Assembly: GCA_944358865.1 (NCBI GenBank)
Contig: CALVRV010000002.1
Location: 12,433 to 76,432, forward strand
Source of the DNA: an uncultured Bacilli bacterium
GTDB lineage: Bacteria; Bacillota_I; Bacilli_A; RFN20; CAG-826
Direction of reading: 5' to 3'
Length of the DNA: 64,000 nt
Shown here: positions 2,301-42,228 of the stretch, piece by piece
How the letters are laid out: each line of letters begins with the position of its first letter
Numbering within the stretch: the stretch's first letter is position 1
Program-made: the position numbers and the translations under genes
Notes under the pieces: generated by a model
Seen by the model: only the letters and a program-made list of their open reading frames with translations
Told to the model about the DNA's origin: nothing
The model's database searches: none

Positions 2301-4910
2301 ATGGAAGAAAGAAAAATTGTGGACAGCTTAGAAGCACTAGAAGCTGAAATTAAAAAAGTTAGAGAAGCACAAGCAAAATTTGCTACCTACACTCAAGAGC
2401 AAGTTGATGCAATTTTCTTAGCTAGTGCAAAAGCTGCTAATATGGCACGTATTCCTTTAGCCAAATTAGCAGTAGAAGAAACTGGAATGGGTGTCGTTGA
2501 AGACAAAGTAATTAAAAACCATTTCGCAAGCGAATATATTTATAACGCTTATCGTCATAGTCAAACTGTTGGTGTTTTTGAAGAAGACAAAGAATATGGT
2601 ATTAAAAAATTATATGAACCAATTGGTTTAGTAGGCGCTGTTATTCCTACTACTAATCCAACATCAACTGCCATTTTTAAAACTTTAATTTCTTTAAAAA
2701 CTAGAAATGGTATTATCATTTCACCACATCCAAGAGCAAAAAAATCAACTATTGCTGCTGCTAAAATTGTTTTAGATGCTGCAGTTAAAGCTGGTGCACC
2801 AGAAAATATTATTTCTTGGATTGATGTCCCATCTCTTGATATGACTACTTTATTGATGCATGAATCTGATATTATTCTTGCTACTGGTGGTCCTGGCATG
2901 GTTCATTCTGCTTATAGTAGTGGAAAACCAGCTTTAGGTGTCGGTGCTGGTAATACTCCTGCCATCATCGATAGTAGTGCTGACATTGTTTTAGCGGTCA
3001 ACTCAATTATTCATTCTAAAACATTTGATAATGGTATGATTTGTGCCAGTGAACAATCATGTATTGTTTTAGATGATGTTTATGATGCTGTTAAAGCTGA
3101 ATTTATCAAAAGAGGTTGTTATTTCTTGAATCCTGAAGAAACTGAAAAAGTTAGAAAAACAATCATCATTAATGGTGCGTTAAATGCTAAAATTGTTGGA
3201 CAAAAAGCTCATACAATTGCTAAATTAGCAGGCGTCGATGTTAAAGAAGATACTAAAGTTTTAATTGGCGAAGTCGAATCTGTTGATATAAGTGAAGAAT
3301 TTGCTCATGAAAAATTATCTCCAGTTCTTGCTATGTATCGCGCGAAAGACTTTACTGACGCAGTGGATAAAGCAAGCCATTTAATTGCTGATGGTGGTTA
3401 TGGTCATACATCTTCTTTATATATAAATGTTATTAAAGAACAAGAAAAAATTAATGTTTTCCAAGAAGCGATGAAAACTTGCCGTATTTTAATTAATACT
3501 CCTTCTAGCCAAGGTGGTATCGGTGATTTATATAACTTTAAATTATTACCATCATTGACTTTAGGTTGTGGATCCTGGGGAGGAAACTCGGTTAGTGAAA
3601 ACGTTGGAATTAAACATTTATTAAATATTAAAACCGTCGCTGAAAGGAGAAATAATATGTTGTGGTTTAGAGCCCCAAGCAAGGTTTATATTAAAAAAGG
3701 CTGTTTACCTGTTGCACTTCGTGAATTAAAAGAAGTTTATAATAAAAAAAGAGCCTTTATTGTTACAGACTCATTCTTATATAAAAATGGTTATACTAAA
3801 ACAATTGAAAAATGCTTATCAGAAATGGGCATTGAATATGCAACATTCTTTGATGTGGCACCAGATCCTACTTTACAATGTGCCCAAGAAGGTGTTAAAC
3901 AATTGAGTGCTTTCCAACCTGATGTCATTATATCTATCGGTGGTGGTAGCGCGATGGATGCTGGTAAAATCATGTGGGTTTTATATGAACATCCAGAATG
4001 TGATTTCCAAGATATGGCTATGCGTTTTAGCGATATTAGAAAAAGAGTATATCAATTCCCAAGAATGGGTGAAAAAGCATTCTTTATTGCTATTCCAACA
4101 AGTGCTGGTACTGGTAGTGAAGTTACTCCATTTGCTGTTATTACTGATGCGACAACTGGTACAAAATATCCTCTTGCCGACTATGAATTGATGCCTAATA
4201 TGGCAATTGTTGATACTGACTTAATGATGTCAGCGCCAAAAGGATTGACTTCTGCTAGTGGTATTGACGCAGTTAGCCATAACTTAGAAGCTTTAGTTTC
4301 AACAATGGCTACTGATTATACTGATGGCTTAGCTTTACAATCATTAAAAATGATTTTCGAATATTTACCACGTGCCTACAATGATGGACTTCATGATGTT
4401 GAAGCTCGTGAAAAAATGGCTAATGCTGCCACAATGGCTGGTATGGCATTTGCTAATGCTTTCTTAGGCGTTTGCCACTCTATGGCGCATAAATTGGGTG
4501 CATTCCATCATATTGCTCACGGTGTCGCTAATGCTTTAATGCTTGAAGAAGTTATCGCCTTTAACAGTGCTGATGTTCCTACTAAGATGGGTACATTCCC
4601 ACAATACGATCATCCATTTGCAAAACATAAATATGCTCTTGCCGCGGATGCCTTAGGTTTAAAAGGCAAAAATGATGACGAAAAAGTTGAAGCTTTAATC
4701 AAAGCAGTTCATGAATTAAAACATCAAATTGGTATTAAAGATACAATTAAAGAATATGGCATCGATGAAAAGAATTTCCTTGATCGTCTTGATGATATGG
4801 TCGAACAAGCTTTTGACGATCAATGTACAGGTGCCAACCCACGTTATCCTTTAATGAGTGAAATTAAACAAATGTATTTAAATGCCTATTATGGTAAGAA
4901 AGGAAAATAA
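2301..4910 (+). CDS. adhE: Bifunctional acetaldehyde-CoA/alcohol dehydrogenase AdhE
   Basis: 869 aa. N-terminal aldehyde dehydrogenase domain (catalytic MICASEQS). C-terminal iron-containing alcohol dehydrogenase domain (GGGSAMDAGK and a His-rich metal site, HSMAHKLGAFHHIAHG). Confidence 0.95.
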   Translation: MEERKIVDSLEALEAEIKKVREAQAKFATYTQEQVDAIFLASAKAANMARIPLAKLAVEETGMGVVEDKVIKNHFASEYIYNAYRHSQTVGVFEEDKEYGIKKLYEPIGLVGAVIPTTNPTSTAIFKTLISLKTRNGIIISPHPRAKKSTIAAAKIVLDAAVKAGAPENIISWIDVPSLDMTTLLMHESDIILATGGPGMVHSAYSSGKPALGVGAGNTPAIIDSSADIVLAVNSIIHSKTFDNGMICASEQSCIVLDDVYDAVKAEFIKRGCYFLNPEETEKVRKTIIINGALNAKIVGQKAHTIAKLAGVDVKEDTKVLIGEVESVDISEEFAHEKLSPVLAMYRAKDFTDAVDKASHLIADGGYGHTSSLYINVIKEQEKINVFQEAMKTCRILINTPSSQGGIGDLYNFKLLPSLTLGCGSWGGNSVSENVGIKHLLNIKTVAERRNNMLWFRAPSKVYIKKGCLPVALRELKEVYNKKRAFIVTDSFLYKNGYTKTIEKCLSEMGIEYATFFDVAPDPTLQCAQEGVKQLSAFQPDVIISIGGGSAMDAGKIMWVLYEHPECDFQDMAMRFSDIRKRVYQFPRMGEKAFFIAIPTSAGTGSEVTPFAVITDATTGTKYPLADYELMPNMAIVDTDLMMSAPKGLTSASGIDAVSHNLEALVSTMATDYTDGLALQSLKMIFEYLPRAYNDGLHDVEAREKMANAATMAGMAFANAFLGVCHSMAHKLGAFHHIAHGVANALMLEEVIAFNSADVPTKMGTFPQYDHPFAKHKYALAADALGLKGKNDDEKVEALIKAVHELKHQIGIKDTIKEYGIDEKNFLDRLDDMVEQAFDDQCTGANPRYPLMSEIKQMYLNAYYGKKGK

Positions 4911-37443: not shown

Positions 37444-38504
37444 TTATTATTCATCATCTTATTTATTTCTTCAATCAAAGTTAGATATGCATCTTTTTCA
37501 TTTATTTTTTTAATGATATTACCTTTTTTAAATAAAACATATTGACCTTTGCCACCAGCAATACCAATATCTGCGTTTTTAGCTTCTCCTGGTCCATTTA
37601 CAACACATCCCATAATAGCAACACTTAATTTAATATTGTTATTTTCAAGATATGTTAAGACTTTTTTTGCTAATTTAGTAACATCAACCATTGTTCTTCC
37701 ACATGTTGGGCACGATATCAATGTTGGATAATTATCATACAACCCTAAATCGTGTAATAATCTTTTACAAGCGACTATTTCTTGATATGGATTACCACTT
37801 ATTGAAATTCTAATTGTATCTCCGATTCCGTCCAATAAAAGAGGTGATAAACCCGCTGATGAACGGATTAGAGATATTTCATTTATACTAGCTTCAGTAA
37901 TGCCAATGTGTAAAGGATAATCATATTTTTCACTTGCGATACGATAAGCATTTATAGTGGTTAAAATATTAGAACCTTTTAATGATAAGACGATGTTATC
38001 AAATTGATATTTTTTAAAAATATTTAATTGTTTATCAATTGAATGAATCATATCTAATTCATTTAGTGGTCTATCATAGTCGTAAATTTGTTTATCAATA
38101 GAGCCAGAATTGACACCAATACGAATGACAGTATTATTTTTCTTAGCTAAATCAATGATTTGTTTTATTTCTTCTTCTTTAGAAATGTTACCAGGATTAA
38201 TTCTTATTGCATCACAGCCATTTTTAATAGCTAATAACGCTAATTTATAGTCAAAATGAACATCTCCAATCAAAGGTATAGATATATTTTTTTTAATTTT
38301 TTTAATAGCGTCAGCGTCTTTTTTATCCATTATTGAAACACGCATCATATCTGCACCTAAAAGGGCGCATTTATTAATTTGTTTGATTATTTGACTAGCC
38401 TTACTAGTTTTAATATTGCACATCGATTGAATCAAAACCTTATCTTGATGACCGATGTAGATATTACCAATTTTAATTTTTTTTGTTTGATTTCTTTTAT
38501 ACAT
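37440..38504 (-). CDS. ispG: 4-hydroxy-3-methylbut-2-en-1-yl diphosphate synthase (MEP pathway)
   Basis: 354 aa. RINPGN, and the C-terminal Fe-S motif SCPTCGR...GCVVNGPGE. Confidence 0.9.
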
Positions 38505-38594
38505 ACCAAAATAATAGTGGATTTATTTAAAAAAGTCTATGAAATAACTTTAAGTTATGATAATATACCATTTGCAAATATTAAGGAGAAAAAT

Positions 38595-38762
38595 ATGGCA
38601 AAAAATAAAGGACGCGAATCAATTATATTAAAATGTACAGTATGCGGCGAAGAAACATATTTAAGTTCTTCTAATAAGAAAAAACATCCAGATCGTTTAG
38701 AAAGAAATAAATATTGCCCACGCTGTCAAAAAGTTACAGTTCATAAAGAGAAAAAGAAATAG
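38595..38762 (+). CDS. rpmG: 50S ribosomal protein L33 (zinc-ribbon form)
   Basis: 55 aa, [20 protein letters not shown]...[22 protein letters not shown] lies upstream of ATG 38595. The longer track ORF from 38379 is an artefactual N-terminal extension. Confidence 0.9.
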
Positions 38763-38781
38763 GCTAATAACCTATTTTTTT
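38758..38781 (+). terminator. Weak hairpin plus T-run after rpmG
   Basis: AATAGG (38758-38763), 7-nt loop, CCTATT (38771-38776), with the T-run continuing to 38781. The stem is AT-rich and the next gene starts 3 nt later. Confidence 0.3.
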
Positions 38782-38783
38782 AT

Positions 38784-39404
38784 ATGCGTATGGAAATAAG
38801 AAAATTTAATGATTCATTTGCAAATTGTTACTTAATTTTTGAAGGAAACAACGCAATTATTGTTGATCCATGTTTAAAAGATATCACGCCTTTAATAATG
38901 TTTATTAGTGATTATCAATTAAATATTAAAGGTATTTTATTAACGCATGGTCATTTTGATCATTTTTTCTCTTTAAATAAATTAATAAACATATTAAAAG
39001 TGCCAGTTTATATACACGAATTAGATGCAAAATTATTAAAAGATCCAATATTGAATTTGAGTAATTTTATGGCACATGAAGATATTATTTATAATCAAGA
39101 TATTGAATATATTGAAGATGGAGAAATAATTAATTTAATTTATAACCATCCTATAAAAGTAATACATACACCATATCATAGTAAAGGATCATGTTGCTTT
39201 TATTTTATAAAAGATAATGTTATTTTAACTGGTGATAGTTTATTTTTGCACAATATTGGAAGATATGATTTACCAACTAGTGAACCAAATAAAATGATTT
39301 ATTCTTTAAAAAAGATACTATCATTAGATGACAATGTAAAAGTTTATCCGGGCCATGGTGAAAATACAAATATAGGTAATGAAAGGCAATATTTTGACCT
39401 TTAA
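38784..39404 (+). CDS. Metallo-beta-lactamase fold hydrolase (glyoxalase II-like)
   Basis: LTHGHFDHF motif plus downstream His/Asp ligands. 206 aa. Confidence 0.8.
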   Translation: MRMEIRKFNDSFANCYLIFEGNNAIIVDPCLKDITPLIMFISDYQLNIKGILLTHGHFDHFFSLNKLINILKVPVYIHELDAKLLKDPILNLSNFMAHEDIIYNQDIEYIEDGEIINLIYNHPIKVIHTPYHSKGSCCFYFIKDNVILTGDSLFLHNIGRYDLPTSEPNKMIYSLKKILSLDDNVKVYPGHGENTNIGNERQYFDL

Positions 39405-39442
39405 AACATAATTATGCTATAATTTTGTTAGGAGATATAAGT

Positions 39443-41560
39443 ATGCCAAAAATTAAACCTATTAAAGATTTAAGAAATACAAATGAAATATCAAAACTAA
39501 CTCATGAAATTGATGAACCTATTTTTATCACTAAAAATGGCTATCAAGACATGGTTGTTATGTCAAATGAATATTACGATAAAAATTTTAATAAACATAA
39601 TACATATAAAGTAAATTCTGTTGAATTAGACAATAATTTTGTCCCCTTAAAACAATGTGATAATAATTATGGTTTTGTTCGTGTTGGTGCAGGTAATTTT
39701 AATGTTTGCCTATCAAATGTAAAAGAAAATGTTAAAAAAATCAAAGATATTATTTTAGATGCTTTAAAAAAAGAAATTCATGTTTTAGTCTTACCTGAAC
39801 TTTGTTTGTGTGGGTATAGTTTAAGAGATTTATTTTTTCAAAATGAAACGCTTGATCAAATCCATGATTCAATAGTGGAACTAGCTAATTTTAGTAAAGA
39901 TAAAAATATCATTGTTTTTATTGGCGCGCCACTAACATATCAAGGTGGATTATATAATTGTGCAGTTGCTATTAATAATGGCGAAATATTAGGCGTAATC
40001 CCTAAAACCTACATACCAAACTACAATGAATTTTATGAAGCAAGACAATTTAGAAGTGGATTAGATATTAAAAAAGATCATATATTGATAAAAGATAAAC
40101 TTTATCCGTTTGGAAGAGAAATTTTATTCCGCTGTTTAAATTATTATAATTTATGCATTGGTGTTGAAATTTGTGAAGATTTATGGAGCAATCTTCCACC
40201 AAGCACCTATTTAGCACAAAATGGAGCGACACTTATTGTAAATTTAAGCGCTTCTAATGAATTAATTAGCAAAGATGATTATCGTCTTGATTTAGTTAAA
40301 ATGACATCAGGGCGATTGATATGTGGTTATGCTTACGCAAGTGCTGGTCAAGGAGAATCAACCACTGATGTTATTTATAGTTCACATAATATTATTTGTG
40401 AAAATGCAAGAATTTTATCTAATAGTGAACTTTTTAAAAATAATTTAGTGTATAGTGAAATTGATATTGAAAGATTAGTAAATGAAAGAAGGAGAACTTC
40501 GACTTTTTTCACTACAAACGATAATTATTTAAATATTGGATTTAAATTAGATATTGTCATCAATAATTTAGTGCGATATATTAACCCAAATCCATTTTTA
40601 ATAACAAACAAAAAACAAGCCTTATCTAGATATCGTAAAATACTAAAAATGCAAGCCTTATCTTTAAAAAAACGTGTCGAAGCCGCACATAGCGATAGTT
40701 TAGTTATAGGCTTAAGCGGTGGTCTTGATTCCACTTTAGCGCTTTTAGTTAGTAAAGAAACATTTAAATTAATGAATAAAGATTTAAAAAAAGTCTACGC
40801 AATTACATTACCATGTTTTGGAACAAGTCAAAGAACTCATGACAATGCAAAAGCACTAGCGAATGCTTTAGGCGTATCTTTTAAAGAAATTAATATTAAT
40901 GAAACTATTAAATCTCATTTTAAAGATATCGGACATGATATTAAAAATGAAAATGCCACATTTGAAAATGCTCAAGCTAGAGAAAGAACACAAGTCTTAA
41001 TGGATTTTGCAAATGATCACAATGCTTTGATGGTAGGAACTGGCGATCTAAGTGAATTATGTCTTGGATGGACAACATATAATGGAGATCATATGTCGAT
41101 GTATGGTGTCAATGCTTCTATTCCTAAAACATTAGTAATTGAACTAGTAAATACATATGGCTTAGACCATCAAGAAGTCGCACAGATTCTAGAAGATATT
41201 ATACTAACACCAATATCACCTGAATTATTGCCATTAGATAATGGAAAAATTATTCAAAAAACAGAAGAAAAAATAGGACCATACGAACTTGTTGATTTCT
41301 TTATTTATTATTTCTTAAGATGTAATTTTAAACCAAGTAAAATTCTTTTTCTTGCTAAACAAGCCTATCATGATAAATATCAAGTCGATGAAATAAAAAA
41401 ATGGTTAAAAATATTCTTAAAGCGTTTTTACCAAAATCAATTTAAAAGAAGCTGTCTTCCTGATGGTGTTAAGATTGGTTCTGTGTGTATCTCGCCACGT
41501 GGTGATTTAAGAATGCCAAGTGACGCTGATGTAAACGAGTTAATATCTTCATTAGATTAG
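39443..41560 (+). CDS. nadE: Glutamine-dependent NAD+ synthetase with N-terminal Phd/YefM antitoxin-like domain
   Basis: aa 1-50 read MPKIKPIKDLRNTNEISKLTHEIDEPIFITKNGYQDMVVMSNEYYDK, which fits the Phd/YefM pattern. From about aa 75 there is a CN-hydrolase domain (YGFVRVGAG, LPELCLCGY, EICEDLW), then an NAD synthetase domain (GLSGGLDST). RBS GGAG lies upstream of ATG 39443. Confidence 0.8.
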   Translation: MPKIKPIKDLRNTNEISKLTHEIDEPIFITKNGYQDMVVMSNEYYDKNFNKHNTYKVNSVELDNNFVPLKQCDNNYGFVRVGAGNFNVCLSNVKENVKKIKDIILDALKKEIHVLVLPELCLCGYSLRDLFFQNETLDQIHDSIVELANFSKDKNIIVFIGAPLTYQGGLYNCAVAINNGEILGVIPKTYIPNYNEFYEARQFRSGLDIKKDHILIKDKLYPFGREILFRCLNYYNLCIGVEICEDLWSNLPPSTYLAQNGATLIVNLSASNELISKDDYRLDLVKMTSGRLICGYAYASAGQGESTTDVIYSSHNIICENARILSNSELFKNNLVYSEIDIERLVNERRRTSTFFTTNDNYLNIGFKLDIVINNLVRYINPNPFLITNKKQALSRYRKILKMQALSLKKRVEAAHSDSLVIGLSGGLDSTLALLVSKETFKLMNKDLKKVYAITLPCFGTSQRTHDNAKALANALGVSFKEININETIKSHFKDIGHDIKNENATFENAQARERTQVLMDFANDHNALMVGTGDLSELCLGWTTYNGDHMSMYGVNASIPKTLVIELVNTYGLDHQEVAQILEDIILTPISPELLPLDNGKIIQKTEEKIGPYELVDFFIYYFLRCNFKPSKILFLAKQAYHDKYQVDEIKKWLKIFLKRFYQNQFKRSCLPDGVKIGSVCISPRGDLRMPSDADVNELISSLD

Positions 41561-41670
41561 ACTATAGTATTAAAAATTAAGTAACAGTCAATTATTTTTA
41601 AATTTACATTTAAATATACACTAATTAATATTATAATATTAAACGTATTTCATAAGGAGGAATTTTTATT

Positions 41671-42228
41671 ATGGTTAATGTAACAGAATTAAGACCAGGC
41701 AACTATTTTGAAGAAGAAGGTAATATTTATCGTGTTATTGATATTTTATTAAACAAAACCGCGATGAGAAAAATGGTTGCTAAAGTTAAAGTTAAAAATT
41801 TAAGAACAGGCGCAGTTACTGAAATTGCTCGTAATAGCGGTTATCAAATCGAAACTATTCGTTTAGATAAAAAACAAATGCAATATCTTTATGACAGCGG
41901 TGAAACTTTAGTATTTATGGATCAAAATACCTATGAACAAGTTGAAATTTCAAAAGATCGTTTGCAATGGGAATCTCAACTATTAAAAGGTGATGAATTA
42001 GTGGAAATTATTTCCTATGGAAGCGAAATATTAGGCGTTAATTTACCTGCTAAAGTAGCCTTAAAAGTTACACAATGTGATCCTGCAACTAGAGGCGATA
42101 CAATTAATAAAGCTATGAAAGAAGTTACACTTGAAACTGGCTTAAAAACAAAAGTACCAATGTTTATCGAAGAAGGAGAAGTCGTATTAATCCGCACTGA
42201 TAATGGTGAATACGACGGACGTGCTTAA
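41671..42228 (+). CDS. efp: Translation elongation factor P
   Basis: 185 aa with typical three-domain EF-P sequence (LRPGNYFEEEGNIY...). Confidence 0.95.
   Translation: MVNVTELRPGNYFEEEGNIYRVIDILLNKTAMRKMVAKVKVKNLRTGAVTEIARNSGYQIETIRLDKKQMQYLYDSGETLVFMDQNTYEQVEISKDRLQWESQLLKGDELVEIISYGSEILGVNLPAKVALKVTQCDPATRGDTINKAMKEVTLETGLKTKVPMFIEEGEVVLIRTDNGEYDGRA

Follow-up and report, generated by a model that had tools for sequence, protein, structure and literature searches.

Here, we describe a gene for glutamine-dependent NAD+ synthetase (nadE) in an uncultured Bacilli bacterium, whose product carries an antitoxin-like domain at its N terminus and is referred to below as Phd-NadE. The gene lies at positions 39443–41560 of a 64-kb stretch of contig CALVRV010000002.1 (the whole stretch that was analyzed, hereafter "the window"; G+C content 28%).

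A Phd/YefM-like domain fused to a complete NAD+ synthetase

The open reading frame (ORF) at 39443–41560 runs uninterrupted over 705 codons, from an ATG at 39443 to a stop codon at 41558–41560. It joins three parts in a single frame: a 48-residue domain of predicted Phd/YefM fold, a linker of approximately 26 residues, and a complete NAD+ synthetase of the Mycobacterium tuberculosis type. A preliminary description of this DNA, made from the sequence alone, had reported such a fusion with no stop or frameshift between the parts, and the single 705-codon frame bears this out. The features of the gene are the following.

39443–41560, + strand: fused gene for Phd/YefM-like domain, linker, and glutamine-dependent NAD+ synthetase (705 codons plus stop)
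39430–39435, + strand: ribosome-binding site AGGAGA, 7 nt before the nadE ATG
39443–39586, + strand: predicted Phd/YefM-fold dimerization/DNA-binding domain, residues 1–48 (homologues, alignment, fold match)
39587–39664, + strand: linker, residues 49–74, unconserved, variable in length, and predicted to be disordered (entropy, model confidence, alignment with 87-residue antitoxins)
39665–40477, + strand: glutaminase (CN-hydrolase) domain, residues 75–345 (Pfam, alignment, structure match)
40652–41557, + strand: NAD+ synthetase (ATP pyrophosphatase) domain, residues 404–705 (Pfam, NF002730, structure match)
40715–40732, + strand: SGGLDS P-loop, residues 425–430 (sequence)

The NCBIfam model NF002730 (NAD(+) synthase equivalog; PRK02628) covers residues 72–701 with 772.6 bits against a cutoff of 473, and Pfam places CN_hydrolase at residues 91–344 and NAD_synthase at 404–634. 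The full-length AlphaFold model has a predicted local distance difference test score (pLDDT) of 89.7, and its enzyme part superimposes on NAD+ synthetase from M. tuberculosis (6ofc/3dla) with a template modeling (TM) score of 0.88 and a root mean square deviation (RMSD) of 2.5 Å, at 36% identity. In an alignment of 86 fused homologues, which underlies all conservation statistics given here, E119, K188, and the SGGLDS motif (S425–S430) never vary, and C244 is retained in at least 90% of the sequences. From established knowledge of the family, we take E119, K188, and C244 to be the glutaminase catalytic triad. Because of the full match to NF002730, the structural superposition, and the conserved E-K-C and SGGLDS residues, the NadE part looks complete and appears to be active, as the preliminary description of an intact NadE had it. 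The E-K-C glutaminase residues, the SGGLDS P-loop, and the two-domain fold are shared with the M. tuberculosis enzyme (3DLA, 6OFC); the 74-residue N-terminal extension is absent from every solved NadE.

Identity and fold of the N-terminal domain

The Pfam profile of the Phd/YefM family, PF02604, matched the single sequence with 20.6 bits (E = 3.9e-4), which is under the gathering score of 29.8, and NCBIfam, like Pfam, gave residues 1–76 no Phd hit above threshold. A phmmer search with residues 1–76 against 5.8 billion sequences retrieved 218 proteins with E values down to 1.8e-15. The best 120 of these 218 matches are mostly 82 to 96 residues long, nearly all carry PF02604, and they are 51–78% identical over residues 1–55. 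The closest relatives of residues 1–48 are free-standing antitoxins of 87–88 residues (65–78% identical), and PF02604 is already annotated on several of the fused homologues.

The same phmmer query gave no relevant match in the PDB, and a profile of the N-terminal domain gave weak ones, to Rv2865 (E = 0.021) and YefM (E = 0.21). A structure model of residues 1–55 (pLDDT 77) has the order β-α-α-β-β-α, and the secondary structure is the same in the full-length model. Among the 40 best PDB matches of the short model, nearly all belong to the YefM/Phd family, with a few deposited as RelBE2/RelJK; the best is Escherichia coli YefM (2a6q_A; TM score 0.82, RMSD 1.5 Å), and the operator-bound Staphylococcus aureus YefM (6l8e) and P1 Phd (4zm0) are among them. 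The single-sequence Pfam score being insufficient, it is the homologue search together with the fold search that settles the assignment of residues 1–48 to the Phd/YefM fold, as predicted by sequence comparison and modeling. The Phd/YefM domain proposed in the preliminary description is thus backed by antitoxin homologues and by the fold match; the sequence itself scores below the PF02604 threshold, and many of its homologues carry PF02604.

In YefM, residues 1–40 serve both dimer formation and DNA binding, and the N-terminal domains of the Phd/YefM family are obligate dimers; in the S. aureus protein, Arg10 and Gln11 read bases, and the β2–β3 wing and Thr32 contact the DNA backbone (PMC7544224). 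In the N-terminal domain of Phd-NadE, P6, I7, L10, R11, N32, and G33 are invariant, and I4, T13, T30, K31, and V38 are at least 90% conserved, the most conserved positions being R11, N/D12, T13, and the T30-K31-N32-G33 loop. R11 and N/D12 fall no more than one residue away from Arg10/Gln11, the base-reading pair of YefM, and the TKNG loop corresponds to the β2–β3 wing. In a gapless alignment with an E. coli YefM sequence consistent with the profile match, YefM Arg10 stands opposite L10, not R11.

Loss of the toxin-binding tail and absence of a nearby toxin gene

Beyond the approximately 50 residues that they have in common with the fusion, the free-standing 87–88-residue antitoxins continue into a conserved helical tail of approximately 35 residues (...AEAE...G...DAE.VF..L..KY). 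The similarity of the fusion to these antitoxins stops at about residue 48–55, where an unconserved linker replaces the tail. This linker is about 20 to 45 residues long among homologues, and its residues 51–68 have pLDDT values <50 in the full-length model; since it is disordered, that model has no contact between the N-terminal domain and the enzyme. The linker of approximately 25 residues given in the preliminary description corresponds to residues ~49–74. In YefM, the toxin is held by α3, α4, and β4 of the C-terminal half (PMC7544224). The alignments show that the fusion has lost the part that would correspond to this toxin-binding C terminus and has kept the half that is predicted to dimerize and bind DNA.

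A free-standing antitoxin (P0102) and 53 of the fetched loci have an overlapping gene for a ParE-family toxin of approximately 100 residues immediately downstream. A hidden Markov model (HMM) of the 53 cognate toxins found nothing up to an E value of 10 in the six-frame translation of the window and in 15 other fused loci, with positive controls at 1e-42. The preliminary description was also right that no toxin gene flanks nadE, the neighbors being a metallo-β-lactamase (MBL)-fold hydrolase and efp. Since the toxin-binding segment and the cognate toxin were both looked for and neither was found, Phd-NadE is not a type II antitoxin.

Conservation and distribution of the fusion

A full-length search returned >110 homologues with identical architecture, 694 to 734 residues long and 48–99% identical to Phd-NadE. 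All the fused homologues listed share the pattern I-x-P-I-x-x-L-R-x-T ... P-I-F-I-T-K-N-G-Y, followed by a linker of variable length and G-F-V-R-V. The mean column entropy of the linker is 3.44 bits, compared with 1.54 for the N-terminal domain (residues 1–47) and 1.55 for the glutaminase domain; judged by these alignment columns, the N-terminal domain is under purifying selection equal in strength to that on the glutaminase domain. The divergence of the N-terminal domain correlates with that of the enzyme body (r = 0.41 over 3,655 pairs), which fits joint vertical inheritance of the two.

The named sources of fused homologues are uncultured Bacilli, Erysipelotrichaceae, and Coprobacillus metagenome-assembled genomes (MAGs), and the architecture is not confined to this genome but usual within a clade of uncultured Bacilli. 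The family is modest in size, because approximately 34 representatives (at 50% identity) span both parts among 1.84 billion searched with a profile of residues 1–135. Six "matches" to this profile, all in a 488-residue protein (P0363), were discarded as false positives, this being a Thr/Ser/Asp-rich repeat protein.

The preliminary description had named an assembly error at the junction, or an extension unconserved in relatives, as possible sources of a spurious fusion. The exact 705-residue protein is present in NCBI, Logan, and ENA assemblies, which speaks against an artifact, and the extension is kept in relatives down to 48% identity. At 90% identity, the protein forms a cluster of 63 members. 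The same cluster also lists five proteins of 204–206 residues (P0258, P0260, and P0263–P0265), which are the upstream MBL hydrolase; this appears to be a peculiarity of the cluster table without biological meaning.

An antitoxin-type dyad on the nadE promoter

Immediately upstream of the gene lie a predicted promoter and, overlapping it, a dyad with the features of an operator.

39394–39399, + strand: −35 hexamer TTGACC of the nadE promoter, within the 3′ end of the upstream MBL-hydrolase gene
39405–39430, + strand: operator-like dyad AACATAATTAT-GCT-ATAATTTTGTT, covering the spacer and −10 box of the promoter as well as the expected transcription start
39407–39416, + strand: unit 1 of the dyad, the perfect 10-bp palindrome CATAATTATG (5/5 symmetric pairs), between −35 and −10
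39415–39423, + strand: extended −10 element TGcTATAAT, inside the dyad

The promoter (TTGACC-18-TGcTATAAT, 39394–39423) is of the σ70 type, has 11/12 matches with a TG extension, and is the best one in 38700–41800. The dyad is equivalent to two 11-bp units, CATAATTATG-c-TATAATTTTG, the sequence at 39405–39429 being AACATAATTATGCTATAATTTTGTT. A repeat search likewise returned arms at 39405–39415 and 39419–39429 (11 nt each, 91% complementary, 3-nt spacer). The 64 kb contain a single copy of the 17-mer CATAATTATGCTATAAT, the expected number of matches with up to one mismatch being 0.01.

The element was found by comparing the 110 nt upstream of every fetched locus. The consensus ACATAATTATGCTATAATTATGyCA lies across the −10 box of approximately 70 genes for free-standing antitoxins, distributed over many Bacillota, Spirochaetes, and other taxa. 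It is built from two 11-bp units, both of them CATAATTATG palindromes, and the pair makes a 25-bp dyad containing the −10 box. On the genes of the 87–88-residue antitoxins, this dyad, ACATAATTATGCTATAAT..., overlaps the −10 box just as it does on the nadE promoter.

A position weight matrix (PWM) was trained on the promoters of free-standing antitoxins only and scanned over both strands of 16 whole fused loci, namely the window, six loci from a genome scan with an eight-sequence alignment, and nine from the contigs that encode fused homologues. The best site lies directly before the nadE ATG in 14 of the 16 loci, the window included, for which the nominal P is 6e-28, a value inflated by the shared descent of the loci. 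In the window, the site at 39406–39430 scores 28.9, compared with 12.6 for the highest-scoring unrelated site elsewhere in the 64 kb. The element is missing from two unfused NadE relatives, P0218 and P0240, with top PWM scores of 2.7 and 1.8, and no further copies of the operator rise above background in the window or in any of the fused loci.

The 14 sites have on average 8.2 of 12 dyad-symmetric pairs, compared with 3.6 expected from composition, and unit 1 has on average 4.4 of 5, compared with 1.5 expected. Two loci (L007 and L092) share a variant of unit 1, CATTTAAATG, which is again a perfect palindrome. The symmetry of the element fits a dimeric binder rather than a bare promoter. An RNA-based explanation of the upstream conservation was dropped, since Rfam found no riboswitch or other RNA in the window and the element lies mostly upstream of the expected transcription start.

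Two classes of loci can be told apart by the distance from the site to the start codon. In the window and its closer relatives, this spacing is 10 to 13 nt and includes a ribosome-binding site. In the other class, which lacks a ribosome-binding site, the final A of the site doubles as the first base of the ATG (L010 2968–2992; L091, L092, and L093, each 3977–4001); this arrangement suggests, from the sequence, a leaderless nadE mRNA.

Proposed origin and autorepression of Phd-NadE

Among the roles that the preliminary description had offered for the domain, autoregulation of nadE now has specific support in the antitoxin-type dyad predicted on the nadE promoter. With a probability of about 70%, we propose that Phd-NadE derives from a domesticated promoter–operator–DNA-binding-domain cassette and that NadE represses its own gene. 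A mobile Phd/YefM-ParE cassette would have been truncated, with its toxin and toxin-binding tail discarded, and its promoter, operator, and N-terminal antitoxin half would have been joined in frame, via a floppy linker, to a housekeeping NadE. In the present-day protein, the N-terminal domains of neighboring NadE subunits would form YefM-like dimers, two of which could occupy the adjacent palindromic units at 39405–39430. Dimers bound there would sit on the spacer and −10 box of the promoter and on the start site, so that RNA polymerase would be blocked and NadE would curb its own production.

For free-standing antitoxins, operator binding is strongest when the toxin bridges two dimers, and NadE from M. 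tuberculosis is an octamer. In Phd-NadE, the oligomeric enzyme body may take the bridging position of the toxin between two dimers, so that repression would grow with the NadE concentration. DNA binding and repression, the role of NadE oligomerization, and any response to metabolites are what we infer from these comparisons. A bolder version, in which the NadE body acts as a co-repressor and octamer assembly, or conformational changes caused by bound nicotinic acid adenine dinucleotide (NaAD), ATP, glutamine, or NAD+, would set the number of dimers on the operator, is tentative, and we consider it rather unlikely. It would mirror the "conditional cooperativity" of toxin–antitoxin operons.

Several points weigh against autorepression. 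The 16 fused loci are kin by descent, which inflates the P value, though their flanks have diverged beyond alignment. Two of them (L006 and L008) have low PWM scores, with similar units at a different spacing. The element holds the extended −10 box, so its conservation is partly promoter function, and the evidence for an operator role comes from sequence only. With a single operator in the 64-kb window, a wider regulon is unsupported. On the protein side, the PF02604 score of this one sequence stays under the gathering threshold, the register of R11 relative to YefM Arg10 is uncertain by one position, and the octamer is assumed from an M. tuberculosis NadE that is 36% identical.

The domain could instead be a structural module that dimerizes or clamps NadE oligomers, the DNA element then being a strong inherited promoter to which no protein binds. 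The obligate dimerization of Phd/YefM N-terminal domains (PMC7544224) would suit such a role, the motif does include TGnTATAAT, and DNA binding by the domain is a prediction from sequence. However, unit 1 (CATNNNNATG) lies in the −35/−10 spacer, a region that promoters seldom conserve, and it is a near-perfect palindrome in 14 loci, a compensated variant included. In addition, the top conservation falls on the arginine and the TKNG loop, which are DNA contacts in YefM, and not on the hydrophobic dimer core alone; a long disordered linker makes a poor rigid clamp, and unfused NadE relatives manage without the domain. We therefore regard a structural role by itself as improbable. The oligomerization-only option of the preliminary description leaves the conserved operator unexplained, but oligomerization may be an additional role.

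A role directed at toxins appears less probable still. Here, the domain would capture or neutralize a ParE/RelE-type toxin encoded elsewhere, on the chromosome, a plasmid, or a phage, whether to link the activity of that toxin to NAD+ synthesis or to serve as an anti-addiction decoy. Its closest relatives are indeed antitoxins of ParE-family toxins, related cassettes occur on gut phage contigs and plasmids, and the toxin search of this genome covered 64 kb. Yet the half with which YefM holds its toxin has given way to the unconserved linker, and the search with the 53-toxin HMM came back empty for the window and the 15 other fused loci, so that the toxin-tethering or -neutralizing option of the preliminary description is disfavored. 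Finally, a misassembly, a miscalled start, or a dead leader ahead of a NadE translated from an internal start has a negligible chance of being correct. There are in-frame Met codons at residues 37 and 40, but a strong ribosome-binding site precedes the first ATG and none precedes the internal ones, and Met40 is only 51% conserved. The identical ORF in independent assemblies, the architecture kept in >110 homologues, and selection on the N-terminal domain as strong as that on the enzyme also argue against it.

A corollary of the co-repressor version of Phd-NadE concerns its operator. Because this operator is nearly identical to that of mobile Phd-ParE cassettes of gut phages and plasmids, incoming cassettes and the host nadE could cross-regulate each other.

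Comparison with known systems

Among the YefM, Phd, and Axe type II antitoxins (PF02604), the nearest to Phd-NadE are those of 87–88 residues, which are paired in Clostridia, Bacilli, and Spirochaetes with genes for ParE_toxin (PF05016); the N-terminal domain of Phd-NadE has the same predicted fold. Two S. aureus YefM dimers dock in adjacent major grooves on a pair of palindromes at the −35/−10 region (PMC7544224). The nadE element resembles this operator: its two palindromic units lie next to each other and would suit a pair of dimers in neighboring major grooves. Unlike the antitoxins, Phd-NadE has neither a toxin-binding C terminus nor a toxin gene and is covalently tied to a 630-residue housekeeping enzyme; unlike the mobile antitoxin cassettes, its gene is chromosomal, syntenic, and vertically inherited.

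Fusions of enzymes with repressors, known as "trigger enzymes," include PutA, in which a ribbon-helix-helix (RHH) domain is joined to proline catabolic enzymes, and BirA, in which a helix-turn-helix (HTH) domain is joined to biotin ligase. NadR, which is likewise an enzyme of the NAD pathway, combines an HTH domain with nicotinamide mononucleotide (NMN) adenylyltransferase and ribosylnicotinamide kinase. Like these proteins, Phd-NadE has an enzyme and a DNA-binding domain in one chain and a predicted operator at the enzyme's own promoter. It differs from them in its module, which has the predicted fold of a Phd/YefM antitoxin instead of an HTH or RHH fold and would have arrived with its operator from a toxin–antitoxin cassette. 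A ligand-controlled switch defines PutA, NadR, and BirA, whereas for Phd-NadE a metabolite response is conjectural, and self-regulation alone is visible, with no regulon.

The known regulators of NAD metabolism are NadR, NiaR, and NrtR, and the latter two are transcriptional repressors of NAD biosynthesis genes in Firmicutes and other bacteria (PMC2330245, PMC2330246). Compared with Phd-NadE, NiaR and NrtR have unrelated folds, are separate proteins, respond to niacin or ADP-ribose, and control multigene regulons. Were the NadE body to act as a co-repressor, Phd-NadE would sense metabolites as a trigger enzyme and would add to these three a fourth class of bacterial NAD regulator, unrelated to the others.

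Our literature searches found no published description of either the fusion architecture or its operator, in agreement with the preliminary description, which knew of no account of the architecture. Enzyme–repressor fusions and exapted antitoxins are already known; what is new here is a predicted operator that appears to have been inherited along with the antitoxin head. If the proposal is correct, Phd-NadE is a clear case of a toxin–antitoxin cassette dismantled and reused, its promoter, operator, and DNA-binding head giving an essential enzyme a ready-made means of autoregulation, and the Phd/YefM fold would join the short list of DNA-binding modules on metabolic enzymes. It would also suggest a mode of control of NAD+ synthesis in a large group of gut Bacilli that are uncultured and have small genomes, and it would mean that PF02604 matches are not always antitoxins.

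Gene neighborhood and related loci

In the window, nadE lies between the gene for the MBL-fold hydrolase (38784–39404, + strand) and efp (41671–42228). The closest relatives share the gene order rpmG, MBL hydrolase, nadE, efp. Ordinary genes flank the fused nadE in all 16 loci: rpmG, the MBL hydrolase gene, and efp in the group that resembles the window, and different ones in the rest. Orthologues of the MBL hydrolase match the Pfam family Anti-Pycsar_Apyc1 (PF23023) in addition to Lactamase_B; they were located by Pfam at the following positions.

L085, 5349–5966: MBL hydrolase orthologue
L087, 3353–3982: MBL hydrolase orthologue
L088, 3295–3933: MBL hydrolase orthologue

Further upstream, a TTG-initiated ORF of 127 residues (38379–38762, + strand) is an ORF-extension artifact, its last 54 codons (MAKNKGRES...) being the gene for ribosomal protein L33 (compare L085, 5151–5315).

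Other surroundings occur in single or distant loci. In 1 of the 16 loci (L090, 2406–3861, − strand), the fused nadE is immediately preceded by genes for an AbiEii toxin (PF08843) and a 195-residue partner, which are oriented divergently from it. Two distant loci with the fusion have, as the upstream neighbor, a gene for a tyrosine-phosphatase-like protein fused to a NUDIX domain (L092, 881–1966; L093, 2873–3952), and an unfused nadE adjoins genes for an isochorismatase (PncA-like) and a PRK-family kinase (L094, 1580–3871). The surroundings in L092, L093, and L094 are possible NAD-salvage neighborhoods.

The N-terminal domain and its operator also occur apart from NadE. An Oscillospiraceae MAG (L072, 3001–3408) encodes a 135-residue protein with the same N-terminal domain and upstream operator and a longer, different C terminus, so the promoter–operator–N-domain cassette may have other fusion partners. 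Relatives of the N-terminal domain with 45–67% identity are found on the human-gut phage contigs MT835563.1 (20909–21046) and MT839877.1, and on the plasmids NZ_CP061173.1 and OY725859.1, which is consistent with a mobile ancestor of the cassette.

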